From NCBI GenBank assembly GCA_040285855.1, contig JAUFOQ010000002.1:682001-746000 (forward strand): a DNA stretch of 64,000 nucleotides, given 5' to 3'. The translations under genes and the position numbers were made by a program. Of this stretch, positions 1 through 34,699 are shown one piece after another. Position 1 is the first letter of the stretch, and each line of letters begins with the position of its first letter. Under the pieces are notes generated by a model. It did no database searches. It was given only the letters and a program-made list of their open reading frames with translations, and had not been told where the DNA came from. The DNA is from Eukaryota sp. GEM-RC1. Lineage: Eukaryota.

Positions 1-3000
1 TTTCATCAACACTCCATCTAGATGAAAGAAACTGAAGTCTTTTCGTCGTATCAATGTCGATGGGATGAGCACTTTCTTCAACAACAGGAATCTCAACTTG
101 TTGAACTTGTTGAGTCGATTGAACAGTTAAAGCATGTAGTTCAAGACTTCGTTGTTCGTAAATATTTTTTGAATCACAAGAGCGAACATCATGAACTTCT
201 AATGGTACACCAGAAATACCAATCACAGATAATGCTGAAAGCATTAACAGTGTTCCATCCTTTTCAGAACAATGAAAGAATTTAAATCATTGCAAAAATC
301 GATTTTTAACAGTTGACCTGTTAACTCACCACTTGAACAATCAATAATAAATTGAATCTGTTTCTTTGGTAGTTTCAAACCGAAACCAACACAGAACCCA
401 AATTCCGTGATGTACATTATTGTGTCATAATGCTTAACATACACTGCATCTATAATTCTGTCATCTTTGTGACAGGAGCAAAATTCCCATACAGGTTGTT
501 CACCAAGCAGCTCCCTTTCATACAAGTCTAACTTTCGGATGGAACAAGTGCCGACAACTAGAACGAAATCGTCATAGCACTTCAAACTTTTGAATTCTTC
601 ATCACGATCAATTTCAGACATGTTTAAATCCATTAATGTTGAAAAATCTGAACAATCAACACAATTTTTTTCATCTTCCTGCACAAAAATAATCAACAAC
701 AGAGTCTTCGTTGCGACAACAAAACAATTTTTGCAGCAGCCATGTCAATACATTGAGAATCAAAACTGTCTCTGGCCAACGGCAACGGTAATACTCGTCG
801 AATAGTCTTTTGTTTGTCTGTTTTTGGCTTGTATTGAATCATAAATATGGGCCCTTCAAAAGCAATCAGTATGGCCTGGTTAAGCAATTGATGATGAAGT
901 GCAAACATAGTCAATTGATTGTCAAATGGTTTACACTGTGGTCTATCTTGATCAATACTGCGACTGAACCTTCGGAGTTCTTTATCAATGTTGTAGACTA
1001 CAAATCGTAATGTAACATTCAACACAGGAGTAGGAGTAGGAGTAATAGCAGAAAAAAATTCTGTATGGAGAGTTTCGACAACGTTGTTGTCTATATTCAA
1101 CGTTCCAATGGCAATTTTTGATTCAAATGAAAAAACAACATAGAAAGTTCTCATTTCTTCACGTGTAAAATTTAAGATTTGAACATTTTGTCCTAAATAT
1201 TTAGCAGTATGAGAAGAGGCAGTACAATACGACTTAGTCCAAGATGACAAATCCAAAGTACTTGTAGCTACTGGTGACTGGGGCAATGCAGTAGTTTCAC
1301 TAATCATGGGTTCAGGAAGGTCAGCGTTTTCGGGGATCATAGGTTCTTCAACCTTGTGTTGGGCTAAGGTAATTTCAGAATTTACTACTTCATTAAGTGT
1401 AGTACATGATGATGCACATAAAGGACACGCAGGATCAAAGCACATCAACAGGTCCTGTTCATCATTGACTTGGAAATTTAGTAACTGGAAATGATGTTTC
1501 CTTCCATTGACATAATCCACGGTAACTGGTGGACTGTTACTTTTCAGTAAGTTGAAATCAAGAATAATAATGTTGTCATACCATGATTTCAACACAGTTA
1601 TGGGAACCTCACCTTGTTCCGTTAAATATACCAAAATACGTAATCGATTGATACATCCAAAGGTGGATTCGATTGGTAACTCATGATAAGGCCAGTAAAC
1701 ATTCCAGACACGTTTTACCTCAAAAGATCCATGAATATCCAGCTCATTACTGTATACAATTAATTGTTTGAACCTCGAATCTTGACAATGCATTGGTGTA
1801 CCAACCTTGATAGATGGCTTTGCCATTTCCGAAACCAAATTGATATTGAAGTTCATGAGCCATACGATGAACAAGTATTGAAAAGAAGAAGGAATATGAG
1901 ACAAGAATTGTGGAAACTTATCACCAACAGAAATACCATTATGATAACCTAGATCTGTAGGTACAGGGAACAGTGATTTGGCACATTTAACTTCCTTGGA
2001 CCACTCATTATCAATACGAGTGTATTGAGTCAAATCACTACAAGGACTTGACATAATGTCGAAAGTTAATTTAATAGAATTTCTTGGTATATGCAAATGT
2101 ACGATATTACCCCACTGTAACAATTGGTTGTACATGTTCCAAAATTCTGGGTCATTGACAACTTTCAATGCCATTGATAAATTGAATCGTGATTTGATAA
2201 TGAATCTATACCAATCAAGATGGAACGTAAGAGAAAAATTTTTTAATGAATCAAGAGTTCCACGGCACTTGTTGACAAACAGTAGATTTTCAATTTCAGT
2301 TGTATTCTCTGAATGCAACATAACAACAGTGCTTTCGGTTTCACCTGGAGCTAGATCTGAAGTAATTTTAACTTTTGAACATAATGTCTCTGAACGAGTA
2401 CTGTCATCATCACTGTCATTAACTTTTAGAGATTTGGAAGATTTGACAATTTTTTGTTCATCAAACAATTTCTTTATAAAGCTGTTAAATTTTTTCCATT
2501 GACATAACCTTCCAACTTCAACCTAACTGAGAATGAATTGTCTACTACAGTTGAATGGAATGACTTATTGGGATAAGAAGCCACAATGGCTTGAAAGAGA
2601 GACGTCGTTGAATTTGGAGATTCAAAAAGAGAAGAGAAGATTGTTGATTCATTTCGAAACTTATTGAGTGTAACTTCAGAAGGATTTGATATGAAATTGA
2701 CAAGTTTTAGAGCAATGCCTTCCAATGATATTAATTGACTTTTGAGATGAGTATTAGAATCTTCCATATCCACGAAACGTGAAACTAAAGATCTTAGTTC
2801 ATTTAAATATCGCTCTAGTTTTTTCAAAAAAACTAATTTAGATAAATTCTTAAGGGCTTGATCATTAAGGGTTTGATCACGTGTTGGGACAATATCCAGA
2901 TTTTTAATAAATTCGCCACATAAAATGTAATGAACCAAGGATAATTTGAAAAACATGTCTGAACGTACAACTTTAGATTCTTCAATAGTAGAGAGTTGTT

Positions 3001-6000
3001 TGAGTAAAGGAATCGATTGTGAAAAGGTATACAAATCGTAAAATGACATAAAAGTTGTACGAGAGCAACGAATGAACGACATAGAATTGATACCCGCAAG
3101 AAGAATCAATCCAGGACACAGGTAATTGTTTGTTAAACAGAAAAATAAAAACTTGAAGTTGTAGAATGAAATATTGGCATTGGTGCAAATCTTTCCGAGA
3201 TAAGTAAGGGGAGAATTTAGTTGGTTTTTTGAAAGAACATTAGTGCGGAAAAGAACATCAACCGAAGACATGATGTTCTCGCTAGAAGGAACATCAGGCA
3301 GTTGACTGATAAAAAAATTCAGGGGGATTTGGACGATTACTGATTAAAAATTGAGGATTTTCAGCGATCTGTTTGATTGTTAACAATGGCTCAATCAACG
3401 AACAATTTAGAATTTCTGGTTCGTCGAAATGCAATCTCGAAGTTCCATTCGGATATAAGTTTGTCTGCACAAGACGTAACGAAAGTCCAGGAGAATTTCT
3501 TCCAGCACGACCAGAGCGCTGGTCCAAAGAAGCAATGGAGCAATGATGAGTGTCGAGAAGGTCATCTGCATCAGTTTGCTTTGACAAACCACAGTCAATG
3601 ACAAATTTGACCCCATCAATAGTCAAGGAAGATTCTGCTATATTGGTAGCAATGACAATTTTAAATTGTTTTTTCGCTGGTTTAGCCACAGCTGCATCTT
3701 GTTGGACTGAATCCAGACTTGAATACAACGGATACACACCTGGCTTCTCAGAAGAAGCTGGGATGTATAGACCACCAGATCCACTTTTTTCTGACTCTCA
3801 TACTCATTCTCAATAATATTACTGAGAGTTGTAATTTCTGGACTTCCAGGAAGAAACACGAGCAAAGTAAATCCTGTACATTCTGGTTCAAACTGAAAAA
3901 GTTTCTGAGACAGGGAGTAATAACAGAGACATAGTCGGGCTAACGCTCTGAAATTGATACTTTTATATGAAAGAGGATTACAGTGTTGAGTGAAATAGTC
4001 GTAGTATGAGTTCACATTGAAGACAAAATAAGTGTAAATATCAATAAAATGATCGTTGAAAACCTGTTGAAGTGTAGGTTCAAAAATCGGAGTTATCACA
4101 AGTTTTGATATTAAGGGACTATAATGAAATTCATTTTGACGAACAAAATTCACATCAAGGACAATCAGTGGATTGGTTCTTCCAGCTGCATGGATAGTAT
4201 AGGAGGGTTCGGTATCTAAATAATTTCCTTGTGTAAGGTAATTAAAACAAGGATTAGGTTTGTCCATAGTTGCCGAACAGATTACCACTCTCAATTTTGA
4301 ATCAGTTTGGGAAATTATTCTCATTTGTGCTAATAAAATGTCAATGTCACATTTTCTTTCATGAACTTCATCCACCATGATAGTTGCAAATCGAGACAGA
4401 TTGCTATTATTTGTCAGAAATTTAGAAGTGAAGGCAGCGGTTTGAACTTCGATAAATCTTGGTGAATGTACTGGAATGTTCGTATTCTTGTTGCCTGTTC
4501 GGTATCCAGACAGAGGAAAATCACTATGACATAAATCATTGATAAAATCGGAGAGTTTTGTGGCTGGTAGAACTCTAGGTTGACACACAATGATTGGTTT
4601 CAAAGTAACCATAACCACAACAACACCAGTTAAGACAGATTTCCCGGAACCTGTTTGACCAGAAACAATAAACGGAATAATATTGTTGTCTTTGACATGA
4701 TTTTGACCAACAACACGAAACAATTGATAAAAGTGTCTTTTCCTTCATTAACAAATGCAATACGGCAGTTACGTGCTTTTGAAATCAACTGAAAGCAAGA
4801 AAACACCAAGTGGAAGTAGGCGTCATTACTGTCAACTGTATTATTCCACTGTTCATTTAGTGTCAAAATTTGAAGAATTTGTGTTAGTAAATCACTTTCG
4901 CGGACATAAGATTTCAAATGTGCTAATTTAGAGCATACTTTAGGAAAATCAATTGATGTAAATGTACACGTTGGTTCCTCTGGTGAAGTCACAGTGCTTG
5001 GGAAATTGTAAACATAGCGGGGAGGTCGTCTCCATTGAAGATAATGATCTAACAACATCTTGTAATCACTATGATTTGACGCCAACCATGACAATGAGAC
5101 TAAGTATTCCATTGCCTGGAAACAGAAAGACATTAAAGAGAGATCTTTGTTTTCTTTTTTTTGTTCATAATGGTAATGGGCACAAAATGACAGTTGGAAC
5201 ATGAGCATACTCATAGTTTCAATTTTGTTTTCGAAAAAATCTTGATATACAGTAAACTGATGTCGGTAAACTTCTTTCCGTTGTACAACTTGTTTAGTTT
5301 CAGGGTCTTTAATTTCGACAATGCGGCTTTCTTCATCTGTATCCACAAAAGTATAGTGCTCGAGAAAATGACAAAAGTTAAAAAATCTTGAAAGTAATTG
5401 AGAAGTGTAGGACGAATCTCTGATATTATTAAAATCATCCCACATAATACTAAGAGAAGTTTGATTATATAGATCATCAAATCCGTCATCATTTAAAGGA
5501 TCGTCTGTAGGATCGTCAGTATGTTCAAAATCAGAATCTTTGACATCAACATCAGGTATTTTGGGGGCTTCTTTTCAATTAATTCAATAACATGAGCAAT
5601 ATCAAAGATTAACATTTTGAGTTTATAAGTAGCTTTTGACTTTGCAAACTTTTCAATCACTTTTTGGTTTTCTTTGTACATTTCCAAAGTAAATTGATTA
5701 TTCGTACGATCATACACTTGAAGGTTGAGTTTTTTCTCCTCCACAACAAATTGCAGATGGAGCATTGTTAATAAAATGTCCAGCATAACCTCAGGACGTA
5801 CCAAAACTTTAGGGTTGATATTTTGATACAAGGATGTGATACTTAATGAAACATCACTAAGTCTAAAAAGTTTGGAAGGGACATTCATTATAACTGTGAC
5901 CAGGAAGAAGGCAGAAGAGACATGGAGCAATAAAAAGGCAAAACGATTCACGAAAAGAAGGTTGTTTTTGAGGACAATGGGGAGGCATCTCATATTTGAA

Positions 6001-7014
6001 TCCAAGAGGCATAATCGGTAAACTCACAGTAGATTCTCGATTAGGGTCACACAATTGACACCAATATTTATGGAGGGATTCCAACGCTCCATCATAACTG
6101 AGCAAGTAATGATTAGCATCTTGTTGACATTCAATCAACTCCGATTCATAGTGTTTGGCCATGATGTAATTTTCAATTCTCCAATTACTTGGCGTGTCAC
6201 CAGGTTTGCAACACTCTTGTATAATTTGGGCCAGGAACGAGCGTCGTGATTCATTGTCTGGATTGGGAATGACATCTGGAGCGAGATCAGTTAAGTTTTC
6301 GGATTCATCTATAAAAACATGATTCATACATGAACAAACTTGGAAACCAGGTGTTCTTCCAGATCTTAGCACTGGATGGGCAAAAGTTTCATGTGGAATA
6401 CGGCAGTAACGATGCAATATGCCCATGTGGTATTTAGTTCTTTGATTATATTTCTTTTGTTTTAGCTGAGTTTCTTCTGTTGGCGGTTCTTGTGTTGGCG
6501 GTTCTTGTGTTGGCAGTTCTTCTGGTAGCGTTTCTGGCAGAGATGGAGGAGGCGATGGTGACACAGAAGTTCTTCTGGGTCTCTTTACTTCTGGGGATGG
6601 TAAACGATCATGGGGACCTGGATTCTGCTCAACGTCTCCATCGATAGAGAGATCACGTTTCCATGATGTGGACGAGAGGATAGAGCACAGAATAAGCGGA
6701 GACGACATCTTAGGACGAGGAGGGAAGCACGTATCCACACATTTCTTCAACCCACCATCCATATCCCGTGACCGTGCTATGGAAACAGTGTTTGGATGAT
6801 GAGATGAAGCAATGGCGGATGTGGACGAGAGGATAGAGCACAGAATAAGCGGAGACGACATCTTAGGACGAGGAGGGAAGCACGTATCCACACATTTCTT
6901 CAACCCACCATCCATATCCCGTGACCGTGCTATGGAAACAGTGTTTGGATGATGAGATGAAGCAATGGCGGATGTGGACGAGGCGAGGGGTGTTAGCAGT
7001 ATAATAGAAGACAT
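1..7014 (-). CDS. Giant (>2,300 aa, 3'-truncated by the window edge) polyprotein-like ORF: 2A peptide - Pro-rich linker - CCHC zinc knuckle - DEAH/RHA helicase - long uncharacterised C-terminus
   Basis: ORFs 5863..7014, 5493..6005, 4630..5445, 3638..4723, 3294..3737, 2474..3271, 693..2468 and 244..699, plus an open frame from ~260 to 1 (DGTLLMLSALSV...RWSVDE), abut. Each of the 8 junctions (~5866, 5565, 4730, 3788, 3314, 2490, 730, 263) is repaired by a 1-nt change in an A/T run, as in the host genes. One junction splits the helicase between motifs IV and V, showing the pieces belong together. Confidence 0.75.
3380..4680 (-). other. SF2 DEAH/RHA helicase core within the giant ORF
   Basis: Motifs in order: GQTGSGKS (I), CQPRVLPA (Ia), DEVHER (II), CSATM (III), LVFLPGSPEI (IV), PLYSSL, IVIATNIAESSLTIDGVKFVIDCG (V), QRSGRAGR (VI), PEILNCSL. 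Confidence 0.95.
5881..5922 (-). other. CCHC zinc knuckle (Gag/nucleocapsid-type)
   Basis: CLFCLLPGHSYNEC fits CX2CX4HX4C exactly. Confidence 0.75.
6613..6663 (-). other. 2A / StopGo ribosomal-skipping peptide
   Basis: WKRDLSIDGDVEQNPG-P matches the G-D(V/I)ExNPG-P consensus, with the W-x-x-D-L-x-x-D-G context of insect picorna-like virus 2As. Confidence 0.9.
6665..6982. repeat. Perfect 153-bp tandem duplication (2 units + 12 bp) in the leader upstream of the 2A
   Basis: GATGTGGACGAG recurs at 6665, 6818 and 6971; the 51-aa translation is repeated identically. Confidence 0.97.
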
Positions 7015-7164
7015 TGGAGTGGGAAAATTATGGAGCTGTAAACAACTATACTGTACAGATAGAACAAGGAATTCTCATGACTTCACAAATACATTTACAA
7101 GGATCGTTTTGTGTACACTTTTATTTTCTCTTAGATACAAGTAGAACAATTTATTACTGTGCGT

Positions 7165-8873
7165 TTATTCTAAATATTGTAAAGAATGATGTTGATAAAG
7201 TAAAACATAGCCATTTAAAGAAATCTCAGTTAATACTGTCTGTTCGTCTACACCTTTCTTGCAATCACTATTGGTATCATGTAACCACCAAGAACCTTCT
7301 TTTTCCTTTGCATATGTCACACAGTGACCGTCAGCAAGGGAATCGTAATGACAGATCGCAGACAGCAGTCTGTATGTGTATTTTTCTTCAACACTACTTT
7401 TGGTCTTGGTTGACACTTTGGCGGTTGAGGTTCGACTGGTACTTCTTTCCCAATCACTACCTCTAACAAAATGCTGACTCCCACACTTTCTTTCATTTTC
7501 ATTAGAAATGTCAAAGACAGACAATTCTTCTGATGTTGGATAATGAGACAATGTGTAAATGTCCTTAAGTGGCAGTTGTGAGTTGATTTCATTGGTAGGG
7601 GAAAACTCAATCGATTCTGAACCCAATTGTGCTTCAGAAGACAGGAATAGATAGAGTGATAGATTTGAAGAAATAATAACTGGTTGAGGATGTCCAGTCA
7701 GTCTAATGATAAGAGCTTTTGGAAGAGAAGCAAAAGTTTCAGTAATTTCTGATTTTTGTTCAGGACAAGTAGCACAAATTATTTCTTTTCGAAAAGGTAG
7801 ATGAGCTTGCAACAATGATTCGAGATCGGTTGGTCTAGAAGGATACCGCCTTTGGATACTTTCCTTGTTAATTTCCAAGGCGAAGTGAATTTTAGATGTT
7901 GGATCAGTCCCACACCAAGAACATTTTGTTGTTGTTTTAATACAGAAACAAAATGCATTAACAGCACAAGAATGCTTTAATTTTTGAGTTATCAACAATT
8001 GATCTAAATCTTGCTGAAGTGATGATTTGACATCTAACTGAGTCTGAACTTTTTTTTGGTGATGGTTTCTCATCTAAATCATATCCATAATATTGGAAGT
8101 CTGTAGTATCAGTTTCTTCTGATTCAGACTGTGGTTCAAATTTTTGACAAAGAGTGTAATTCATCATTTGATGAAGATGGCAAGGTGGTGCGGAATTCCT
8201 TGTCAAGTGTTTTTAAAAGTTTGGCAAGGAAATTGAAAGGATCGTGTTGACCCGCCGCAAAAACAGGATAAATGTCAGCGATTTGCGCACGAACACCTTC
8301 AATATCTTTCGAATAAAAACAATTGAAGAGAGGAGTAGCAGAAGTATCAAAATCTAGTTCTTTGAAATGATTTACATTGAGTTCGAAGAAACGTTCAATG
8401 TGACGTATAATAAAATGGATAACTGAATAGACATAACAACAATCAGATGAAGTAGAAATTGAAGGAGTAGTAGTTTTAACAGGAATAGCAAGAGCCTCGT
8501 TAACTGTTTTAGTCAAACTGGAAAGAGAAGAAGGGGATACAATCAGGTTATGAGATGAGAGGGTGGTTTTTACGATGAAAGATATCACGTCGCTAATACA
8601 CTGTGTATCTTCAAGGGGAGTGATTGCACGAAGATTAGAGGATGATGTTAAGCTGAAAAGGAACTTTGTTTGTGCAACGTCTGATGTTACAAGAACGAGA
8701 TTTAAATGGTATTGAATATGTCCATTATACACTACGACAATGAAGAAGTCGCCCGCAGTGTCTTGGACGATGACAATTTCAACATCTGTAACTTCCGCAG
8801 GAATGTCATTTACGAAGTCTAGTTGCATCTGTTGTTTGGGAAAACGTTGGCGGACACGGAATGATGTTGACAT
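7165..8873 (-). CDS. Divergent ubiquitin-specific protease (peptidase C19/USP); two homopolymer frameshifts near 8140 and 8055
   Basis: Cys-box-like SSDCCYVYSVIHF, GQHDPFNFL (QxD box), CSWC...CATC Zn pair, LPKALIIRL, His box YRLLSAICHYDSLADGHCVTY, WWLHD and GYVLLY, in canonical USP order. Confidence 0.85.
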
Positions 8874-9045
8874 GTTTGTGCAGAGAGGAAAATTTATGTC
8901 CTAGTCTATTATTACAACAAAGATTCCATTTTTGACTTTCAATCAATACAATAGGGTGGGTTTATTCATTCCGTGATGAATTTGTCATTCACGAGGATTA
9001 ATGTTTTACTATAACTAACTAATACAGGATTAATAAAGGAACCAG

Positions 9046-10563
9046 TGAAGTAGAAATTGAAGGAGTAGTAGTTTTAACAGGAATGGCAAGAGCCTCGTTA
9101 ACTGTTTTAGTCAAACTGGAAAGAGAAGAAGGGTTAGGCAAAATCAGGTCTTGACACTTAATTCGTGGAAGTCGCCATTGATTATTCGTACGATCATACA
9201 CTTGAAGGTTGAGTTTTTGAGAAAGTTCCCACACTAAGAATTTAAGTGTCGGCTGCCACAAACCTAAGAAATCTTACCAACATAAACGTGTTCAAAAATT
9301 TGTTCACTAATCAGTCTGTTGCTGGGTTGAGTACAAATGGCCCAGAACAATGAGCCTTAACTTTATTAATTATCTTGTGACTGGTTCTTTTCATGATGAG
9401 AACTACAGATTTACTTGAAGATACTAAAACAATTTTTTAGTAACGAAAAAGTTTAAATCAAAAACATTCTGTATGAAGAGTTTCGACAACGTCGTTGTCT
9501 ATATTCAACGTTCCAATGGCAAGTTTTTGATTCATGTGAAAATCTGGATCACCATATTGGAGAGCAAATCTGTGGACCAAGTTTTGTTCACTTCGTTCTT
9601 TTCTTGAATAATGGGTAAGGCGTCTACGTCTAAAAAATTTCTCTTCATAGAAACAAGCCTTGAAAGTTTTTGGAACTGAATCAGTTGTAATTAAAACTTT
9701 TTGTAACTCAAATACAACTGCACTTGTGGATAAACAGTAGATTTTCAACATCCACTGCCGTAGCTTTGATGATGCAGCCTCCCTATCCTTATCTAACTCA
9801 ACTCGAGACTGACTCCATTGCAGGGTTTCGGGCTCAGTTGAGTTTAGATAGTCCCAGTATGAAAGGCCTTATTACTTTATGCAAAATTCTGTCTATTAAC
9901 AGGACAGTGATTGATCTGGATATCTCCCCCAACTTAATTGATATTGAAAGTCACATTTTCTGTTTTTCACCAACGAATTTTGTTCCCAAAGAAGCGGGGG
10001 TGGCAGGATTTGAAGAGGTGATGTATATGACATAAAGACCATTTACATCTGTTGATCTACTCTGCTTCTGAATTGTACAGAGGAACGAAGATATACCACC
10101 AAGCTATTGCTCAAGATGTTCCCATTGTGACTTTGAGAAGAAGAGCAGAGAGAAATGAAACGGAGGGAACGAAGAAAGTTATACAGTATGGCCGATGCAC
10201 GATTACTGATTAAAAATTCAGGATTTTCAGCGATCTGTTTGATTGTTAACAATGGCTCAATCACGATGGAACGAAGAAAGTTATACAGTATGGCCAAGAC
10301 AAATCACAAGACAACCATACTTCTCAGAGGACAATCTTCAAGCGGATCTACGAAACATACAATGCAAGAGGCATTCAGCAAGAATCAGTCAGAAATCCAG
10401 TGTTTTCAGCAGAGGAGATAACTGAAGGAGCATCATCACAGAAGAAGTGTATAAAGAGAAAACCACGGAACAACACATTCCTTCAACCCACCATCCAAAT
10501 CCCGTGACCGTGCAATGGAAACAGTATCTGGATGGCGGAATTGAGAAATGGCGGATGTGGACG
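9046..10563. other. Mosaic of short near-identical snippets copied from the adjacent island genes, mixed with unrelated fragments
   Basis: 9046-9133 = 8448-8535 (1 mismatch); 9177-9218 = 5693-5734 (exact); 9466-9534 = 1058-1125 (2 substitutions, 1 indel); 9720-9748 = 2265-2293 (2 mismatches); 10199-10263 = 3333-3397 (1 mismatch); 10473-10563 is a diverged copy of ~6737-6826. All are direct orientation, in scrambled order. Confidence 0.92.
10166..10295. repeat. 28-bp perfect direct repeat bracketing a 74-bp insert that contains a helicase-derived snippet
   Basis: GGAACGAAGAAAGTTATACAGTATGGCC at 10166-10193 and 10268-10295. Confidence 0.97.
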
Positions 10564-11107
10564 CAAAGCAAAGCAATGAGTGCAACCACGATACACCAGA
10601 TGACAACCCAACTCATCTTGCCCACTTGTCGAGTGCAGGAGACAAATTGACAAGAAGAGCGGAATTGCCATCTATGTAAAGAGGTCACTTCTCATAGATA
10701 TACGTGGCAGCAAGCACATATCGTGACCAAAACTTACTTTTGGCATCATCACAATGTCTATAATTAGAAAGATGGAGGATCATACGCATGTCAAGAGAGA
10801 AGAAAAGTGAAATTGCAGTATTCATTTTTGGAGTCTTGTCTTGTTTGTCTACAGATAGCAGACATCTTTTCTGTCTTCGGATATCTCCTACACTTCATAT
10901 ACAACATTTTTGTACTTACTTACTTGACATCATTCATTAATTAATACATCAACAATGTTATTTTCAATGCTCTTGTGTATCACAACATTGACAATACATT
11001 GAACTAGAACGTATATGTTGATTTCGTGTTAACAAGGAAGAGACTTGAAACAAAAGAAGAACGGGATGCTTTATTGATATCTAAACAAAGAAAACTACAA
11101 TAATGAT

Positions 11108-12258
11108 CTATAAAAACAAATTTAAATCGCATATGGTGTATGAGGCTAGCAGTATCACGAGTAGTATCACCAGAGCAATTCGAATAGCTCTTTCAATTAC
11201 TGGGGTGGTGGTTTCACGAAGGGCGGAAGCAACTGCACTAAAGATGAGTTCAAGTTCCTTCTCGTCAAGTGAATGCTTAGAGTTTGCTAAAAGAGTAATC
11301 ACTGCCTCATGACCAGTCTTGACAACGCTGTCAACGTCAACAATCTTCTTAGGTTGAGGTTCAGTTATCTAGAATTAGATCAGTGGATTCATGTATGAAA
11401 GAAAAGTGAACTTCACTTCACATCTTCGAGTCCTATACTAGACCATGCACACTTATCTCATTCAATAAACAACATCTTCTTTATTTTGTTCTACTTGCCA
11501 GTTGTTTCTGCAAAACAGGTCCTACATTTAACTTCTTTATCTCTAACTTCTTTCTCTTATCGCTGCCTGAGATAGGCTTTTCCTTTCCACACGGCTGTCC
11601 CAAAGTCTTGGAAACAAGTGATCCTAGGGAGGATTGAATTTCATTGTTTTCAGTAGGAGTAGAAGGAGCGGATTCAACGGGAGAGTTACGAGAGGACTTT
11701 GTGAGAGGTTCTGGAGTTGTGGCTTCTTTGCTCACAACTTTAGCTTCTTTAAGGTGCTTGTTCTTTTCTTAACAATATGAGTTCTTTCATGAATAACATT
11801 AGGAGCAATTGAATAAAACTCAGAAAGATCTTCGTTTTCTTCAGCATTCATACCATACACTTTCTTAAAACGTGAAGAAATGTCTGGTACTTTTGCGCCT
11901 TGGGAAGCTAAATATTGAGTTCTAGAATTAATAAAGTGAACAATATTCTCAAAAAGTCTTCCTTAGACTGTACCAAGTCTGAGAGGAATTCATCATTGTT
12001 GGTACTTATAGAAAGTCCATCTGTTGAATTATCACGAGGTCGTGAAATTAGAATATAATCCCCATTGGGACCGAGCTGAACACTTTTACCATCCACCTTT
12101 GTCGATGTATAACTAAAGACGTTATAGACATCCTGGTGCTTGTTCATATTCTTTCTTCGGAAAGCGTTAGAGCGTCGTTTCTTGATATAATTGACAGACA
12201 TAGACGTAGCATCATCTGAAGACTGATATGAGAGTGAATAAAGACATACAACTGACAT
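11108..12258 (-). CDS. Hypothetical protein, fragmented (frameshifts and a probable short intron); C-terminal hydrophobic segment
   Basis: Consecutive same-strand ORFs 11908..12357, 11481..11735 and 11108..11302. A CTAAT-TCTAG branch/acceptor motif ending at 11369 is in frame with the last exon. No recognised homology. Confidence 0.35.
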
Positions 12259-12301
12259 TGGATTTTTTGCCGGAAAAATATTTTCCTTCACTATCAATTC
12301 A

Positions 12302-13105
12302 ATGACCAACAATATCTTACAAGATTGTTTGGCAACATTCTTTGAAACATATCTCATTCAACAAATACAAGCATGTGGGTGTATCAAATGCATGGCCATA
12401 GGAGAACTTAACTCTCTTGACAAATTGACATCACTTTTGTCTCACATACATCGTATGAGCTTTCATCCAAATCTTGAAGATGACTTAACTTCTTTATCTC
12501 CTTTACTTTCAATCTGCTCACATATACTAGCGAAATGTAAGACAATGCCGTCGATTCCATTGTGGAACGTGGTATTCAAAATTGTTTGTTGTTGTTGTAG
12601 TAGTGTAGATGTTGAGGGAATGCTAAATTGTTTTTCTGTCCTGTTATTTGTACTTGCAAATTCTTTACAAGCAATGTATAACACGTTGTTGATCACAAAG
12701 TGTGCAAGAATATTGTTTCTCAATGATATTTCCGAATTTCTTTGGAGTATTAGTGATCGGCAGTGTCTAGTTAAAGTATTGACAGTTTTGCTACTGTCCT
12801 TGAATGTTGATGAATGTAGGGAATTGTTACTTACTGAAGTATTCCAAGAGTTTACAGGATGTTCTGAACCATTGACAGATATAATTCTTATGTGTGAGAA
12901 CAGTCAAGATGAGGAGTTTATTGAAATGTCCGTTGTTGTTAAAAGGGTGTCTTCGTTGTTCAACTTGTTTGATGTGAATGAGATTTGTGAATGTGATGCA
13001 GATTGTGACAAGGAGTTTGTGAGTTTCATTGATTCATTGCTTAAGTATAAAGAACAGTTTTATTTTATAACATATAGCAATGAGGAGATTACAGTCGACA
13101 TATAG
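12302..13105 (+). CDS. Hypothetical Cys/Leu-rich protein
   Basis: Uninterrupted 267-aa ORF; no recognisable motif. Confidence 0.5.
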   Translation: MTNNILQDCLATFFETYLIQQIQACGCIKCMAIGELNSLDKLTSLLSHIHRMSFHPNLEDDLTSLSPLLSICSHILAKCKTMPSIPLWNVVFKIVCCCCSSVDVEGMLNCFSVLLFVLANSLQAMYNTLLITKCARILFLNDISEFLWSISDRQCLVKVLTVLLLSLNVDECRELLLTEVFQEFTGCSEPLTDIILMCENSQDEEFIEMSVVVKRVSSLFNLFDVNEICECDADCDKEFVSFIDSLLKYKEQFYFITYSNEEITVDI

Positions 13106-13561
13106 AGAACACAGATCGGTGTGTCCCACTTCTACGAGGAACATCAGCAGTGGAGGGAGGATGAGGATTACCTTGGATTTAGTGAAACAGAAGCAGAAGG
13201 TACCTTGTCTTCAGATAGAATGGCATCAACGAGGGCTAGGAGAGAGAACTCATGTTTGATTTGTAAGATCAAGGGAGTGTCTTTAAAAGACTCGGATATG
13301 AGTTAGAGTGCTCGAAAGTAGTCCAATGACACGATACATTGCTCTATTTCATCAAGATCGATCCCAACACCAACATCACCTTTTACAAAGACATATAATT
13401 TGACATATGAGACGATAGAAAGCTCATCATGGTAGAATAAGCTTCTAAGAATTATGTACGACCAGCATTTTCCATACAGTGGAGATAGATATATAAATTA
13501 TAATGAAAGGAAAGTTTCCCTGCACAATCTGCATCTTAAACATCACCACTTCACACACTCA

Positions 13562-16011
13562 ATGTCCATTATCAACACACTTACAGACGAACAGGCTCAG
13601 GTCTTCCAAGCTATTACTCATGCTAGACCTTCTAAGCGTCGAAATTTCTTCATTACTGGTGGTGCCGGATCGGGCAAGTCTTACCTACTGTACTGTCTTA
13701 AACAGTGGTGGTCTAATGCGGGTTCCAAGCTAATGAGACCCAATGGCCATGTCTTTTTTACTGCTACTACTGGTGTTGCTTCCACTGTCTTTGGTGGTCA
13801 AACCCTACACTCTCTCTTTGGTTATAATTTTATCCGTAATGAAAAACCAATATCTGATGTCATTCGCTCTATGCCTTCAAGTGTTAAGTCTGTTTTACGA
13901 ACTATTAGTGCCCGAAATTCAATGCTTGTTATTGATGAAATTTCAATGTTGACTGCTGAATTATTCAACAGAGCATCAGATATATTTAAAGATTTAATGA
14001 AGTCTCAGTTACCATTTGGTGGACTTCAAGTAGTAATTTTTGGTGATTTTTTGCAACTTGCACCAATTGTAAAGTCTGACTCAAACACACGTACTGTTCT
14101 TCAACTTTCAGACTTTACGTTTTCATCACAGTCTTGGAAGGACTTGAATTTGAATTTTATTGAATTATCTGGAAGTATCCGACAACAAAATGATGTCAAT
14201 TTTTATAATTTTTTGAATGAACTACGTCTCGGTCTTTTTGATGACTATATGAAACATATTTTATTGAAACATAAGTCACTAGCCAAAAATATTGAAAGTC
14301 CAACCAAATTATTTGCTAGAAACAAGGATGTCGCCGACGAAAATTTAAAACAATTTGATATATTATGTGAACAAGGTAATGAAAATGTTGAATTTCATTC
14401 CCTCGATAAGTTCAATGAAAACTTAATTAAATCAGAAATTGTTAAAAGTTGGGCATTTGGTAAGCCTAATGAGGAACAAATGGAAAAGGCTGTTGATTTA
14501 AATTTAAAAAAATTATCAAGTAGGCTAAACGATTTTGCCGAACAAAAATTTCACTGTGTCGTCGGGGGTTTGGTAATGTTTACCCAAAACAAACCAGATC
14601 TGGGCCTAGTAAATGGGTCAAAAGGCAAAATTATTGATTTTTCGGAAAGTTCACATTTCATTAATGTAAGATTCGGGAGGGACGAAGAACCAATCAAAAT
14701 TATTCCGACTAAATTTGAAATTGAGGTGTTGAATGAGAAGAAAAAGCCTGTAATTATAGCATCCCGATTGCAATATCCTCTTCGTCCTTGTTGGGCAATA
14801 ACAGTCCATAGATCTCAGGGACTAACAATTGAAGGAATTGAAGTATCATTAAATTTTTGGGAATATGCCCAATTGTACGTTACATTGAGTCGAGTGAAGA
14901 ACTGGAACTCAATTAAAATTTTAGATATTTCTTCAAGATTTCCCAAACCAAGAATTGATCTTTATCAGTGGTATTATTCCACTTTTCACCCCTGTCGACC
15001 GGTTACAAAACCTCTTTATCCTTTGCCATTAGAAGATGAAAGAATTGTTAGAAATTGGCCTTCTGTGTTGAAAACTTTTGATGAATTTTCGTCCAATATT
15101 ATTTCTAGTGTTGGTCAAAGTACAGAAACTGTTGATGTTCTTGATCCAGTCAGTGAAGAAATTAAGGAAGATTTGGTGGAAAAAGATGTTCCAAAAATTG
15201 AAAATTTTAATACCACTTCTGATTCAGTTTTAGAATTATTCGATAATGAAGTTGTTGTCTCTGGAAGTGATAGTGGAGATGATGAAACTGATGATGATGA
15301 CGATGCGTCGTCTAGTATGAATGATTTTGTTGTGAATGATGACGATGAGTGTCTCAATAATCAAAGTGTAAGTGCCATCAATTCTGATTTAATTTTTAAC
15401 AAGCCTGTGCCAAAACTGAAAAAAACAACAGTTACTGCTTTGCCTAAATTGAGACCAAATCTATTGTGTCGAAATACTCTCAAACCAAATTCGAATTTAC
15501 CTAGTTTGAAATTATCAAAAAAGTTACAGATCATGTGGACACTGAATCTGTCAACAGATTACCAAATTCTCTTGGTATTCAGACAGATTTTGAAAAAAAC
15601 TTGAACAATACTCATAATATTGCAATGCAGACAGAAACAAAGGTTCTCACAATTGTCCACGATATTGTACCACTACACTGGAACCAAAATGATTCAACAT
15701 CAGACTGTCAATCACATATGAGTTTGAAACTTGAGTTGTTAAAAGATTTAAATTTATTGATGGCCAAAATTTTGAATTTTCATTTAAATGATAGGGACAA
15801 GTACTTTAATGTGTTGTCATTGACCAATACTTTTGTTGTGTCGATACTAGATTTAAATGATGAATTGGTTTGTGATGAACAATGTTTGGGAATATTGGAT
15901 GAATATCGTGAAGTGATGTGTGAGTATTGTTGTGGGATTGGATATAAGGAGTCGTTTTCGTTGGCTGTGATGTTTGCGAGGGTGATGGGGGGATATAGTA
16001 GTGTTAGTTAA
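13562..16011 (+). CDS. PIF1: PIF1-family (SF1B) DNA helicase with acidic low-complexity C-terminal extension; frameshift in the A-run near 15520
   Basis: LTDEQ, ITGGAGSGKS, ATTGVAS, GGQTLHSLFG, IDEISML, PFGGLQVVIFGDFLQLAPI, RQQND, LVNGSKG, RLQYPLRPCWAITVHRSQGLTI, QLYVTLSRV. Likely start MSIINTL at 13562. Confidence 0.93.
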
Positions 16012-16060
16012 GTTTGATAAATTGAGATTGTATATTGTATTGGTTGTGTTTAACGACATT

Positions 16061-16606
16061 ATATATAGAAGAAAAAATTATGAGCAACAACAATTCAATA
16101 CACATACGACACGTTGATTGAGATTGATTCTCACCAAATGTTGTTTCACCAAATGTTGTATCACCAAATGTTGTATCACCAAATGTTGTTTCACCAAATG
16201 TTGTAGTTACAAATGTTGTTTCACCAAATGTTGTATCACCAAATGTTGTATCACCAAATGTTGTCATTACAAATGTTGTAGTTACAAATGTTGTTTCACC
16301 AAATGTTGTCATTACAAATGTTGTAGTTACAAATGTTGTTTCACCAAATGTTGTCATTACAAATGTTGTATCACCAAATGTTGTCATTACAAATGTTGTA
16401 TCACCAAATGTTGTATCACCAAATGTTGTAGTTACAAATATTGTTTCACCAAATGTTGTAGTTTCAAATGTTGTATCACCAAATGTTGTTTCACCAAATG
16501 TATATATAGAAGAAAAAAATATCAATGTCAACAATTCATTACACATACGACACTATTGTCATTACAAAAGTTGTATCACCAAATGTTGTAGTTACAAATG
16601 TTGTAC
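16061..16606. repeat. 15-bp minisatellite (core CAAATGTTGT; TCACCAAATGTTGTA and variants), ~25 units at 16131-16500 plus ~3 at 16560-16606, each block preceded by a ~52-bp header
   Basis: Exact 15-bp phase over 370 bp; header TATATAGAAGAAAAAA...ACACATACGACAC at 16061-16112 and 16502-16553. Confidence 0.97.
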
Positions 16607-16919
16607 ATGTAGTTATAACTTGGTGTCTTTGTGTCTTCTGATGCATGAAGCTTCATGAAGCAAACCTTAATGTTTTCCTTGGGAGGATAAGATGTCAATG
16701 TGATGTATGTGTTGTAAGATGGTTGTACAACGTTGATTTTATTCTTGACATGGTTGAACACGGTTCACAATTCTAAGAACGAATACCTGCAAACACGTCT
16801 CTATCTTGAAAGAAGCTCAACACTGGATATCAAACGATGTATGGAATCCATCAAAGAAGGTATAAGTGAATCAGTTTGGGGATGTGGTTATGGGGTGAAG
16901 AGTATTTGGGGTAAAATGA

Positions 16920-16957
16920 TTTTGGGGAGTATGCACCCCAAATGAATTCAACACTAG
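16920..16957 (+). mobile_element. Candidate Helitron-like 3' terminus (hairpin + CTAG followed by T)
   Basis: TTTGGGG-AGTATGCA-CCCCAAA stem-loop (16921-16942), 11 nt spacer, CTAG (16954-16957), next base T; co-oriented with PIF1. Confidence 0.45.
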
Positions 16958-16977
16958 TACAGTAGTACTTCTTTACA

Positions 16978-19634
16978 ATGTCTAAACCACATCGCTCTAG
17001 ATTACCTTATCACCCATCTCAAAGGTTGACTTTGGTCCTCCACCTCCTGGTTACGTTCCTGGTGTGGGCCGTGGACTTATCAACACTCAAACCTTTGGAG
17101 GAGCTTTAGATGGTGGAGGACGCTTCAAAGGAAAACGCATACCAGGTCAACCCATTGAATCTGCTCAAGAGTCCTTCTTTTCTACTGACATTTCTAAAGA
17201 AAAGAAGGAGAACGTATGTGGTCAAACATAGACAATCTCCTTGAATCCCGTAAACGTACTTCCTCCTCCTCACTTCCGACAAAGAGACCTACTCACCTAT
17301 CTGATACCAAATCTTTCCTCACCAAACTCTCCACTTCTGACTGGACAAACATCCCTGACTGTGGTGATCCACTTGCCAGGGAACTCCGTAATGAAGGGGC
17401 TACCATTAGAGAACACTGGACTCCAGTGCCAGACTCGTTGATTGTGACCGGTCACAATCAACTTCGATCAAATATTATGGTTGCTCGGATTGAAGGGTCT
17501 ACTAAAGTCAATTCTGCTGATGATGTTGACGTTTCTGATTACCTACAATCCCTTCGTAAACTTTCCCAAGACGACACCCCACAAGACGAAGCTTTCATTG
17601 GTGATGCAGGCAAGATCTCCTCTATCCTAGACGAGGTAATCAGAGCCAACCCCCACTCCCCCAGTGCTTGGTTATCTGCTGTGAGAGCTGCTGTAAGGGC
17701 GGGATCTTTAAAGAAAGCAAGGGGGTTGGCTTTACAAGGAGTATTGAGATGTCCTAAGAGTGAAGAACTGTGGGTGGAGGTGGTGGAGTTGGTCAAGAGT
17801 GTTGAGGAGAAGAAAAAGATGGTTAAGAAGGGACTGAATGTACTTCCTGAGAGTGAGCAGCTGTGGTTGAGGTATATAGAGATTGTGGAGAAGGGGGATA
17901 GAAAGGAAGTGATTAGAAGAGCTCTTGATCACGTCAGCAAGTCAATCAAGTTGTGGAGGATCTATATTGATTCATTGGATCTTGTTGAGAAGAGTGAGGG
18001 GTTAAGGGAGGCCTCGTTGGCTTTGGAAGATCAATTTATTGAGTTTCATGCTGAGTTGTTAGAGGTTAAGTTACGACTTTTGAGTGAAAATCGTGATTTA
18101 GATATTACCGAGTTGTCAAATTTGATTGATGAGTTCTTTTTGGGAAAGAGTGAAGTTGATTTTGGTGGTCGTGACGGTCTAACTCAGTTTTTAATTGGAT
18201 ATATTAAGAAATTGAATGAGTTTGACTGTTTTTACAGTGTGATATTCATTGAAAAAGTTCGTATCTTTTTAAATTTTGACCATAATGACTTTATATCTTT
18301 TCTATCAAGTCAGGAATCACTATCCGAATTCTCTCTTACAACTACCTTTTTCAACGTTGTTTCCGACCCTCATCACGATCAGAAATGGAAAGAACTCATA
18401 AGTACTGTTGCTTTTTCAAATATTCCTGAACGATTCAGATCAATCTTTCTTCAATTATTTAATTATTTCAATGTTGATCCAAATCCTTCATCATTACCTT
18501 TTGCCTTGTCTCTATCCAATGAACTTTTGAAAAAGTGTTTTACATTTGCCTTCTTCTTTTGCCCAATGTCTACTAAATTGGTTGGAACTTTGGTTAAAAT
18601 TTTAAATTTTAAAAATCATTTGGATCAAGCTGCAAGTGTATGTTTTGAATACTTTAATAATTTAGATATTTCAAATCATCTTGACTCTCAGGATTTACTT
18701 CTCCTTATAGATTTGTTCTGTAAAGTGATAGTTCAACAAAAGTCTATCGTTGCACTGACCGAAGTTTGTCCAATTTTTGAAACAATCATTAACAATCCTG
18801 ATGTAAATCACGATTCTTTTGTTCTCTTGTATGTCAAGGTGCTGATCTCTTTGAATCAACGTGATCAATCAATCAAACTGTTAGCGAACTACTCCCTTGA
18901 AGATTCTGAAACACTGTCAGTTGCACTCTTTTGACCTTTACAGAGATTACTGATTGTGAGCGGTTTGTCTTTCAACTGGTCAACAAGAAGAAGATTTATA
19001 CGTTGGTATTGGAATTGTTTTTCTCGAAGTTGAAAACGTCATCACTGTTGACCTCTCACTCAATAGGAAAGTATAGGGCTTTTCTGGAACGAGTTCTTTT
19101 GATTGCAAAAAAGAGCTCAATCAATCAAAACAAGTTTCTATTTGGTTGTTAATGTCAGAACTAGAATTGAAATTTTCTCTAGATTCTGCTGTTAGTACCC
19201 TAAGTCGAGCTCTCAAAGCACTTCCAGACGAACACAAAGGCCAAATTTACTCTAAATTTTTAAATATTTGTCCACCACCTCTAAAGAAATCAATTACCAG
19301 GGATGCACTCAAACTACTTCCCAATTGTCCTTTTGTTCTTTCTTCTTCTGCCGTTGTTCTCTTCCAACAAGGAGCTCCAAACAAAGCCAAGAAGTTCTTT
19401 AAACTAGCTTCTAAAGTGACACGTCACAATGACGTGGATGTTTTATCTCTTTGGATGAAGTTTGAGCAGTTAAGAAGTGATGACGTTGAGTGTGTTGGGA
19501 TAAGGAATCAGTTTCTACAGATGGATTGGTATATCGGACGAAATTTTAATATTTTCAGATTTGAAAATAATTTAGATTGGGAATTTGATCTAAGCTCAAT
19601 TCAACTATTTATTGGCTCTTTTTCTATCGAGTAA
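16978..19634 (+). CDS. PRP6: Pre-mRNA splicing factor Prp6 (HAT/TPR repeats); four homopolymer frameshifts
   Basis: N-terminal DFGPPPPGYVPGVGRG, ERMWSNID, LSTSDWTNIPDCGD, NPHSPSAWLSA, GVLRCPKSEELW and HAT repeats. Confidence 0.92.
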
Positions 19635-24589: not shown

Positions 24590-25330
24590 ATTTTTTACTA
24601 TTCAATTAATTCTAAATGTACTGTAATAGACTAAACAGCTAAAATTTGATAGCATTAAAGCAACACCTGTCGCTAACAAATCATATAACAGCTGTGTCCT
24701 CATTAAAGGAACTCACAGCTAGTAGAGCTTTGGAGATTATTAGAGGAATTTTTTCCAAAATTTTAACCACGATACGATTCATCCATAACATATGATCAAA
24801 ACGTGTGTTCATCCTATTTTTTACAATTTATCCGAAATCGTTTAACAAATTATATACACTTTTTTCCATACGGCCGTCGATTGAAACAGCCAAAGGGCAT
24901 AATTCGTACTCAACATGCTTTACATGTTTTGGAAGCCATCAATGGTTTCTTGTACTTATCCTGTTTGGCTGGTTCAGAAATGTCTAAAGGGGAAGTTTCA
25001 GAGAAAGCATTCTTTAAAAATGACATTTTACATCAACAACAAACAATTTGTCTGAAGAAGAAGGGACAACAACGTCCACTCTCCGTTTACCAAAAACTTG
25101 ATTCTGTTTTTCGTCATTACATTTATTTGATTCTAAAGATCTTACATTGTCGAAGTGGTTCAACAAATGATTCAATTTTGTAAGACTTACACATAGCTGT
25201 ATTTGGTCTCTTACAGCATCGTGCATACAGGTTCAATAAGTTATGTAGCGATTACAACTTAACAAATGAAAAAACGTTAACTGTTTTCCACAGCTACATT
25301 GAAGATCATTTGACAAATTGTATGGCCGTA
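24590..25330 (-). mobile_element. Degenerate 3' part of a CRE/R2-like non-LTR retrotransposon (Zn finger + restriction-like endonuclease)
   Basis: MHDAVRDQI...EPL...VVVPSSSDKLFVVDV; inverted near-copy of ~44780-45380. Confidence 0.8.
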
Positions 25331-25529
25331 AATAGCAACGAAGTCTCATCGTGGTGGTCCAATTTTAATTACATTATGTTTGTATTTGTGTTCTTTTTGT
25401 TTCTTCAGTGTAATTTTTATGGATATAATGAAATATATAGAAACTCAATATCATCAAAGCAAGATTCCTTAGAATCGAACCTTGTTGAAGCGTTGTCTTC
25501 GTAATACACACTGACGGATAATAAAGCTC

Positions 25530-27855: not shown

Positions 27856-29325
27856 TTGAAATAGTGATAAATATTGAAGTTGTATAAATATGTGTTCTGT
27901 TGGTTATAGTATCCTTCTTAAGAAATTACTGGCACTTTTGTGTCTCTCCGATGCACTTATTGGAGCCCTACAATCTACGTCTGTGGACACACTGCTTTGT
28001 ATCACGATCTCACTTAGAACAATTGTTCTAATAGTCATGCTGATTCCATTTTGGCCAAGTTGCTCAGTGGTAACTACTTGTAGGAATTGGGTGGTTCGTT
28101 ACTACAACGTTTATTAGACTTCTTTAGATTTTATGTATCTTTAAGAGATAATACATGCTTTTTGTAAATACAACATTCATACTTGTTGTTCTCGTCTCTT
28201 GACTAAAATCAGCTACACTGTTATAACATACTTTTGTTGAATTAAATCGGTGTAGAAAAAACTGCGTTTAAATTCCACATTTCAAGCACATAGCTCTTTG
28301 ATGAATTCGTTTACAAGAGGAGTCTGTCATCCATAATTAACACAGTAGTAGTCAACAATCCAAAGACAAGTAATCTCACCAGTACTGCTGAAGAGTCACC
28401 ACAGACAGTGTTTCAGTATTACAGCACATTATCAATCTGATAATGACCAGTTTTCTCGAGACAAAAACTGTGCAATTAGAAGCAGTTGTTACTGGCACGT
28501 GTATGCTTGTGTTTTGTGCAATTATGGAGGTACAACTGTAGTTATACGGAACATACACTTATTACAATGACTCGAAAACTTGACGGACACATAGAGAAGG
28601 CTATACGATAGCCTAACACGATGTTTCACTCATAATATACATTGCTTTTTTTTATCTATAAAGATGATTTTATGTTGATCCTTAAAGTTCAGATACGAAA
28701 TTCAAATTCTGTCACACGTATAAGAAATCTAAAATTTCAAATTCAAATTCTGTCACACGTATAGCCAATCTCCGTAGAGAAGGTAGGAATTAATTTGGTT
28801 CTAGAAAACACATGTATTGGAACAATGAAGTTGCGCAATTGCCACTACAATTGTATATAGTCAATACAATAGACTCCGGTCTTAGGGAAGTGGACCTTCT
28901 TGATGTAACTATGACCGACAGTTTTCAAATTTAAAGCCACAGTCGTCTGATCAACAACTTGATGATAGATGAATGTTTTAGTGTTTCCATTGGTTAATCT
29001 TATTACGATCGACAATGCTACCATAAAGACTACTGATTCCCTTTGTATAGGCTCAAATTCAATGTTGCGGTACTCATCATAAATATCCTTTCATTATACA
29101 AAAGAGAGATTAATAGTAAGGGGTATGCTTGTATTGTTTTTAAGGTTGCTTGTATTAGGACCTCGACGATATTCAAGTTAGGTTCCTCCATTGTATATTT
29201 TTATAGTAGCGTATCGTAGAATTGGACTTTTTACTTTAGTTTTTTACTTCCTACATAAATCATAGTAGGCATTCTCTTATTCAAGCATCAATACGTATTG
29301 GGTTTTGTAAATAGCCTACTTCGAT

Positions 29326-31990: not shown

Positions 31991-32039
31991 CAACCTTCTC
32001 GATAACTGCTGACAACTCAGAAACTCATCCATGGCTAAA

Positions 32040-32290
32040 TAAATTAAGAACCGCTCAACAACTCGAAATGCCTAATGACGGAGTTTTTAAATTTATTTGA
32101 AAATTTGTGTTCAGAATTTGCCAAGAAGTTTAACAGATCGTACTGGGAGAGTAAATTTGCCTTTTCGATTTTTAGGTCAATGTATAGATATGTTGATTCC
32201 ATTTTGTCCAAGTTGTTTGGAGGCAACTACTTTTCGGAATTAGGTAGTTCGTTTGGTAATTCGTTTTCATAGTGTTTATTTATTTGTTGT
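32040..32290 (+). mobile_element. Non-LTR RLE 3' fragment
   Basis: FAKKFNRSYWESKFAFSIFRS parallels the FW..RIVF.IF motif of the other copies. Confidence 0.6.
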
Positions 32291-32329: not shown

Positions 32330-32820
32330 TTGTTTCATTTTTCTTACATTGCTGATGTACAATATCTTTCGGGAGAGGAACCTCAATCTCAACCTGAAGC
32401 TGAGCTCCAACCTGAACCCCAACCTGAAGCTCGCACTACTTCTCGAAAATTGGTTCTGTAGCAAGACAAGATGTTCTTTATGTCTCCCTAAAATTATCAA
32501 TTAAAATCTGACGAAATTACTAGATATCTTGCGGAAGAAATAATCGGACAAAGATCCATGGGAGTGGTGGTGCTCATCTAAAAATCGTTTTCCGTGGGCT
32601 TTCCAAAATTTCAAGGCACTTTCTTGCAATTCAAGCCACAAAAATTCAAGCTACGTAAATACAATATATACTGAAGTCATCATGGTTCTGGTTTGGTTCT
32701 GGCTTTTGCACTTGGAACCAAACCAGAACCAAAACCATGATGGTTCCGGATTTTAGAACCAAACCAAACCAAACCAATCCATTGGTTTAACCAGAACCAT
32801 TGGTTTTTTTGCCTTCCCTA
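32330..32820 (+). mobile_element. hAT transposon 3' remnant (dimerisation domain, AACCA-type subterminal repeats, terminus ...TTTGCCTTCCCTA)
   Basis: Frameshifted RYLAEE..EWWCSSKNRFP.LSKISRHFLAIQAT at ~32520-32640; GGTTC/AACCA repeats at 32684-32800. Confidence 0.75.
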
Positions 32821-34623: not shown

Positions 34624-34699
34624 GTTCTCATCAATGCTACGGGTTTTGTTGCGAAATTTGTTGCACAGAATCTTATGGGATGTTTAGAAGTGGTGAACC

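Follow-up and report, generated by a model that had tools for sequence, protein, structure and literature searches.

Peptides of the 2A (StopGo) class are known from RNA viruses and reverse transcriptase (RT) elements, and in 2A-bearing non-long terminal repeat (non-LTR) retrotransposons an N-terminal 2A is followed by a CCHC zinc knuckle, a feature of their ORF1. Cellular DEAH/RHA helicases (DHX36, DHX29, Prp2/Prp43, HrpA/B) share a set of core motifs with a winged-helix and ratchet region, and Helitron-like elements (HLE1, HLE2 and the Helitrons of Paramecium) pair a PIF1 helicase with cargo such as ubiquitin C-terminal hydrolase (UCH). Here we describe a giant gene at the left end of a 64,000-nucleotide stretch of DNA from Eukaryota sp. 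GEM-RC1 (contig JAUFOQ010000002.1, positions 682,001 to 746,000; hereafter the window, in whose positions all coordinates are given). Its protein runs from 153-bp repeats through a 2A motif, a Cys/His region with a CCHC knuckle and a DEAH helicase into residues of no assigned family, so that a 2A here heads a captured cell-type RNA helicase in an apparent DNA repeat. The initial annotation knew this architecture from no described element, and our full-text literature searches, which took in few subscription papers, likewise returned no description of it. Copy number, which had been left to be counted, came to at least 28 other dispersed loci on nine contigs with distinct locus tags, 23 of subfamily A and 5 of subfamily B. 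We think it probable that the block around the gene is mobile DNA of some transposon kind, and we tentatively propose, at somewhat under an even chance, that the giant gene travels as cargo in a large DNA transposon, >17 kb long and probably of the rolling-circle kind, which also carries the neighbouring UCH, PIF1 and 237-amino-acid (aa) genes.

On the minus strand of 1-7014 the giant open reading frame (ORF) is laid out as a chain of nine stop-free frames, neighbours overlapping by 43-161 bp:

5863-7074, minus strand: giant ORF, piece 1
5493-6023, minus strand: giant ORF, piece 2
4630-5574, minus strand: giant ORF, piece 3
3638-4744, minus strand: giant ORF, piece 4
3294-3797, minus strand: giant ORF, piece 5
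2474-3343, minus strand: giant ORF, piece 6
693-2522, minus strand: giant ORF, piece 7
244-744, minus strand: giant ORF, piece 8
2-286, minus strand: giant ORF, piece 9, running into a dead DEAD-box domain in another copy, P0158 (P0158 comparison, Pfam, PDB)

The initial annotation had joined nine fragments into one intron-less ORF of >2,300 aa still open at base 1, and this held up well. Traversing 1-7014 needs 8 frameshifts on the minus strand versus 81 on the plus strand, and at least 57 (mean 72) were needed in 200 sequences simulated with a Markov-2 model. The ORF spans ~2,338 codons in the window, or ~2,480 when 139 residues from P0158 are added. Against the codon usage of the central pieces, pieces 8 and 9 score as coding (0.20 and 0.36 bits/codon), with shifted frames negative. 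A plus-strand ORF at 22-285 was rejected as a real frame because its codon score is lower and the minus frame runs on into a Helicase_C domain.

Whether the breaks are real was judged on 23 proteins from other subfamily A copies. Numbering the eight frame junctions J1 to J8 in gene order, J1 (near 5869) and J5 (near 3317) have one base too many and the other six one base too few. The fragments had been said to join at A/T runs, which is true of five of the eight overlaps (runs of at least 5) and not of the other three. Other copies read through J1 (6 of 7), J2 (4 of 6), J3 (7 of 7) and J5 (4 of 7), and J4 is crossed in frame by 2 of 9; the copies reading across skip no DNA, and one of them, P0127, continues uninterrupted for 1,300 residues from its first methionine to beyond J4. 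A 38-nt 'intron' placed at J4 in seven gene models was rejected, since two copies read through it and subfamily B retains the linker. Break positions differ between copies and fall at different short runs; three copies break ~100 bp before J6, where the window is intact. The essential host genes PRP6, CSE1 and NDC80 in the window are also broken, several at short A/T runs, and each of these could also contain short introns. The assembly of the named relatives is reported as Nanopore R9.4 with short-read correction, 48% repetitive, in the accessible text of PMC11316075. Because other copies read through J1-J5, nearby host genes are broken alike and the assembly is Nanopore-based, these five breaks are most likely assembly errors. 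The proposal that artefactual frameshifts hide the ORF therefore stands for J1-J5 and is weaker for the rest: J6 and J8 were bridged by none of the 23 proteins, and all seven copies that reach J7 end at the window's own stop (693-695). A systematic miscall would explain this pattern, as J4 is wrong in 7 of 9, but J7 may instead be a true stop or a programmed shift. In current gene models the family is invisible, cut by assembly errors into short hypothetical proteins.

Within this ORF we located the following features, among them the 2A, zinc knuckle and DEAH motifs named in the initial annotation, each of which was recovered:

6665..6982, minus strand: 153-bp tandem repeat, 2.1 copies, encoding a 51-aa leader unit (repeat search)
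6613..6663, minus strand: 2A (StopGo) motif, class B-like W-x-RDL head with class A core (motif)
6571..6585, minus strand: basic KRPRR patch, ten residues past the skip site (sequence)
5881..5922, minus strand: zinc knuckle C-x2-C-x4-H-x4-C closing a Cys/His-rich region (motif; no Pfam match)
3495..4672, minus strand: DEAH helicase core with motifs I, Ia, II (DEVH), III, IV, V and VI (motif; intact in both subfamilies)
2474..3494, minus strand: winged-helix and ratchet-like region, then a helical low-confidence part (DHX36 by sequence, Prp2/Prp43 by predicted fold)
244..2522, minus strand: ~770 unassigned residues, with many short hydrophobic strands in the final third

The 2A motif has the (G/H)D(I/V)ExNPGP core required of 2A/StopGo peptides and does not differ in any of the 7 other N-terminal copies; its sequence marks it as a hybrid of classes A and B at which ribosome skipping is predicted. 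Hybrid peptides of the H15A/H15B type have the same W-x-RDL head with a GDVExNPGP core, and two tested examples skip at 89% and 95%, as given in the accessible part of bioRxiv 10.64898/2026.09.24.754024. However, the same text reports W(V/I) at the second position, where the giant ORF has lysine, and places these peptides in RNA virus capsid ORFs, in contrast to the DNA repeat seen here. It also reports most library members with a 2A core to be inactive (in the class A library, the active gate captured 18.6% of cells). The basic patch beyond the skip site is a candidate nuclear localisation signal, and it is followed by a Pro/Glu tract and the Cys/His region that ends in the knuckle.

The N-terminus raises the possibility that the giant gene is a unit of its own. 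It would stem from the ORF1 end of a non-LTR retrotransposon into which host helicase domains had been captured, and would be retroposed in trans, with its neighbours as separate repeats in a repeat island. In the accessible part of the same preprint, N-terminal 2A outside RNA viruses is mostly non-LTR (330 of 1,547 class A contigs are RT elements). Furthermore, the 5' tandem units vary in number (2 to 7 among 8 proteins that hold the N-terminus), the gene lacks introns, the order of 2A and knuckle matches that in 2A-bearing non-LTR retrotransposons, and non-LTR RT remains lie at 47982-48680. In contrast to those retrotransposons, the giant ORF holds a DEAH helicase and no RT or endonuclease, the P0158 end included. 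The 153-bp repeat forms an imperfect hairpin (z -2.2 on the minus strand), but a ribozyme in it is unsupported, as Rfam gave no match in 1-18000. We consider a retroposed gene of this kind unlikely but credible, and the neighbouring genes discussed below also bear on it.

The ~400 residues before and ~770 after the helicase matched no family by Pfam, PDB sequence search, PHROGs or NCBIfam, and ESM Atlas gave no usable match for 693-2522 or for residues 415-1000 of the copy P0121. A single-sequence fold of 693-2522 was unusable (predicted local distance difference test score, pLDDT, of 31), and a propeller read by eye in 244-744 found no support in one pairwise structure test.

By sequence and predicted fold, the helicase is of the cellular DEAH/RHA type, with a fold like that of DHX36/Prp43 and not that of NS3, CI or NPH-II. 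It aligns to DHX36 through the winged-helix region (phmmer E 2e-27, up to residue 678 of copy P0128). Our structural model, which had a pLDDT of 72 and was built on a 64-row DEAH alignment and so leans toward a DEAH fold, matches DHX29/DHX36 (E 1e-25) and superposes on Prp2 with Z 31.6 and a root-mean-square deviation of 3.7 over 524 aligned residues. Past residue 700, where the C-terminal oligonucleotide/oligosaccharide-binding fold of DEAH/RHA proteins would be sought, the model is helical and of low confidence. Among viral folds, giant-virus HrpA-like helicases lead (Terrestrivirus E 2e-23, African swine fever virus (ASFV) B962L 1e-19), followed by poxviral NPH-II (1.5e-13) and potyviral and flaviviral helicases (near 1e-11). 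The giant protein differs from cellular DEAH/RHA helicases in identity (20-26%), in length (~2,480 aa), in its 2A, knuckle and second, dead RecA2 domain, and in its at least 29 copies. The HrpA-like helicases of ASFV and Mimiviridae have the fold class in common with it but are stand-alone proteins, 14-18% identical. To our knowledge, none of these giant-virus helicases bears a 2A. In a tree made by a quick method the helicase stayed unplaced on a very long branch (3.9); the tree used 40 of 51 rows, 11 having been dropped for a missing motif VI pattern, and held no viral rows. As a separate observation, bacterial-looking low-GC contigs (L001, L003-L006, L011) encode HrpA-like helicases of 860-990 aa with a divergent motif Ia.

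These matches also bear on the initial annotation's suggestion of a replicase-like gene with its polymerase further left, and on the related idea that the ORF encodes the replicase polyprotein of an RNA virus that became endogenous. A very long ORF that opens with a 2A motif and contains a helicase would suit such a polyprotein. However, the helicase is not replicase-like, as potyviral and flaviviral helicases score far below DHX29/DHX36, and neither the giant ORF nor the P0158 end yielded an RNA-dependent RNA polymerase, the ~770 residues matching no family. Only one of 139 candidate proteins matched the last piece of the ORF, namely P0158 (95% identical), which runs 139 residues past base 1 and then stops. 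Pfam identifies this extension as a DEAD-box Helicase_C domain (E 1.3e-4), and its closest PDB sequences are DDX39B (E 8e-4) and eIF4AIII (E 2e-3). Because motifs V and VI are missing from its RecA2 domain, the DEAD-box domain is probably inactive. On the basis of this one copy, the giant ORF probably ends ~139 codons left of base 1, and a genuine stop in P0158 would mean a protein of ~2,480 residues that lacks a polymerase. The leftward continuation thus leads into a degenerate DEAD-box domain and a stop, and the copies are dispersed and near-identical, leaving an RNA virus replicase very improbable.

The other copies resemble the window closely: helicase core identity is 94.7-100% in five subfamily A copies and 65-68% in three of subfamily B. 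A search with the helicase piece gave 288 proteins, and among the 120 matches listed three are close, at 98, 96 and 65%; the remaining ones listed are ordinary DEAH helicases, at most 34% identical. Clusters of close helicase relatives comprise 20 proteins, including the one from the window itself; a 39-aa cluster member, P0146, was dropped as unlike the giant gene. All close relatives are named Eukaryota sp. GEM-RC1, a Skoliomonas isolate, and among the matches listed in the protein search, which covered 645-2000 aa, none was named from other Skoliomonas isolates. Scans of metagenomes with the C-terminal part found no relative, and with the helicase found 26 generic DEAH loci, none with a 2A or any non-helicase piece. 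No two giant-gene loci lie within 22 locus tags of each other, the closest being 23 apart. Because N- and C-terminal pieces of the ORF never carry neighbouring tags (0 pairs within 13), either most copies are partial or the true copy number is much higher. The best reading is a recently amplified, intron-less gene, so far known from one isolate only, which limits its reach.

Dispersed, multi-copy and in two subfamilies, the gene is not the single-copy orthologue of a cellular DEAH helicase that would have refuted the initial annotation. In principle, it could still be a host family specific to this lineage, such as an RNA-sensing defence protein, whose 2A came from a retroelement and which expanded by duplication. 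Its cell-type helicase with motifs intact in two subfamilies would fit, and other microbial eukaryotes have large multi-domain DEAH proteins. In contrast, the nearly identical copies are dispersed one per site, the search described above named no relative from other Skoliomonas isolates, and the neighbouring genes are multi-copy as well. We regard a host family as improbable.

The block to the right of the giant gene contains the following features:

7165..8873, minus strand: UCH gene, in pieces, 150 bp upstream of the giant gene and co-oriented (Pfam E 3e-9)
9046..10563, no strand: mosaic of six 32-103 bp scraps of UCH and the giant gene, 84-100% identical
12392..13105, plus strand: 237-aa ORF of no known family, three other copies of equal length
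13562..16011, plus strand: stand-alone PIF1 helicase with an acidic and helical tail, one break near 15520 (Pfam, clusters)
16131..16605, no strand: 15-bp minisatellite (repeat search)
16921..16957, plus strand: 7-bp stem-loop, 11 nt, CTAG then T; candidate Helitron-type right end (pattern search)

All four neighbouring genes looked up are multi-copy. The UCH gene has nine other copies at >=90%, and PIF1 falls into subfamily A (19+5 members) and a second subfamily of 7 members, ~57% identical. Most subfamily A copies of PIF1 start at one common methionine, with no Rep in frame upstream. In gene model P0300 the tail of a subfamily B PIF1 is fused to a sugar kinase, so its neighbour differs from PRP6 here. 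The top outside match of the local PIF1, P0164, is a 909-aa protein with two tandem PIF1 domains. In the 1.5-kb mosaic the scraps keep one orientation in scrambled order and include one from beyond base 1. Because scraps of both genes interleave in it, the mosaic suggests that UCH and the giant gene travel together, which counts against a giant gene retroposed alone, although locus tags show no significant linkage of the giant gene with its neighbours. Two side observations concern this part of the block: a scrap within the mosaic at 9769-10035 (plus strand) looks by eye like a leucine-rich repeat unit, with no Pfam match, and a chain of overlapping frames at 11108-12357 (minus strand), which stands head to head with the 237-aa ORF, is probably a further broken gene that belongs to no known family.

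For the proposed cargo-carrying transposon, the closest comparison is with Helitron-like elements, which have in common with the block a PIF1 helicase, UCH cargo, a stem-loop with CTRR|T as candidate end, internal minisatellites, a mosaic of short scraps and genes in both orientations. UCH is a known Helitron-like cargo, and a stem-loop followed by CTRR and T defines the right end of HLE1, according to the accessible part of PMC11417382, in which DEAH or 2A cargo is not named. Paramecium Helitrons contain minisatellites, a mosaic satellite, scrambled scraps and ORFs in either orientation, as described in the accessible part of PMC13085455. In the block, a single candidate for the HLE1-type 3' end lies at 16921-16957, and the host gene PRP6 probably starts 20 bp beyond it; with both strands counted, 64 kb of DNA should contain 0.37 instances of the pattern. 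In addition, one PIF1 locus tag is 4 tags from a giant-gene tag.

Several observations weigh against a Helitron-like transposon. The local PIF1 is more like non-Helitron Pif1: it carries an RQxxD motif that is present in 111 of its 115 best outside matches, and Helitron helicases differ at this motif. No Rep/HUH was found by Pfam or motif search of 1-17000, and PIF1 stands alone, in contrast to the single RepHel ORF of HLE1 (HUH-Y2 Rep fused to Pif1). The end pattern has three matches in the window, one inside PRP6 and one at 34621, which was rejected as such an end because it is the end of a hAT-type miniature inverted-repeat transposable element (MITE); the fold of the candidate-end segment is weak (z -1.5). 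In its main text, PMC11417382 warns that end-pattern searches give many false positives, and it reports UCH almost only in HLE2, a mismatch with the CTRR ends that mark HLE1. Locus-tag pairs within 13 tags are not enriched for the giant gene with PIF1 (2 versus 1.4 expected, not significant) or clearly so with UCH (2 versus 0.5 expected, p 0.08; within 30 tags 4 versus 1.1 expected, p 0.02 in one of 15 tests), in a test without power, since the two halves of the same giant ORF also pair 0 times within 13 tags. Finally, the RNA function that we propose for the giant protein below is inference only.

The initial annotation had offered an endogenous virus or a giant transposon, and the latter is the better fit. 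In its DNA form the viral explanation would make the block part of an endogenous Polinton-like or giant-virus-derived genome, with capsid, polymerase and integrase genes left of the window. HrpA-like DEAH helicases with this fold occur in giant viruses, the genes are intron-less and tightly packed, and viral Pif1-like helicases are widespread according to the accessible part of PMC8788227, which also separates Helitron and non-Helitron Pif1 clades. However, scans of viral contigs gave no relative of the giant ORF or PIF1, no viral hallmark gene (capsid, packaging ATPase, pPolB, integrase) was found in 1-17000, cellular DHX29/DHX36 outscore the viral helicases and the start contexts are host-like; a DNA virus here has a small chance of being correct.

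The examined block (1-17000) yielded no Rep, transposase, RT or capsid. It fits a known kind, the large cargo-carrying transposon, and there is a real chance of a new class: an unlikely, but not negligible, large eukaryotic mobile element without known transposase, integrase, RT or Rep. It would be built around a stand-alone PIF1 together with a ubiquitin hydrolase and a 2A-processed DEAH polyprotein, and the mobilising activity would reside in the 1,000-plus residues of the polyprotein that match no family.

If the giant gene is cargo of a large transposon, we hypothesize that translation would start inside the repeat array and that the ribosome would skip at the 2A. A leader of variable length would then be translated and shed, leaving the working protein untouched and always starting at the same proline with its putative basic nuclear signal. 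The product might bind RNA via the knuckle and DEAH core and remodel RNA-protein complexes with ATP, its most likely role being to shield the transcripts of the element itself, or secure their export, in the face of host silencing; the dead DDX39B/eIF4AIII-like domain could act as a decoy that docks on host export or exon-junction factors. Copying of the element would depend on a Rep/HUH enzyme, supplied either from left of the window or in trans, and on unwinding by PIF1. Retention of both an ATP-competent DEAH helicase and a dead export-helicase domain in two subfamilies of a transposon would, if true, be a testable borrowing of host RNA machinery, perhaps against silencing.

Elsewhere, 16978-61216 holds the host genes PRP6, CEP44, NDC80, an eIF2B subunit, PSF1 and CSE1, several split at short base runs. 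The hAT-type MITE (34143-34624) has CAGTG-starting inverted ends, an 8-bp target duplication and internal GC-rich palindromes, and lies in a nest of short inverted-repeat elements at 32400-36300, for example 33226-35333 with long terminal inverted repeats. A decayed LTR retrotransposon occupies 28031-32253, with direct repeats at 28031-28100 and 32184-32253, a protease-like ORF and an RT at 30755-31423. The non-LTR-type RT at 47982-48680 (minus strand) is a fragment. A repeat of 600-700 bp is present in inverted orientation at 24622-25352 and 44750-45353, its copies 71-81% identical, and a tandem duplication (61392-62221 and 62681-63489, 88.6% identical) contains a membrane-protein-like ORF.

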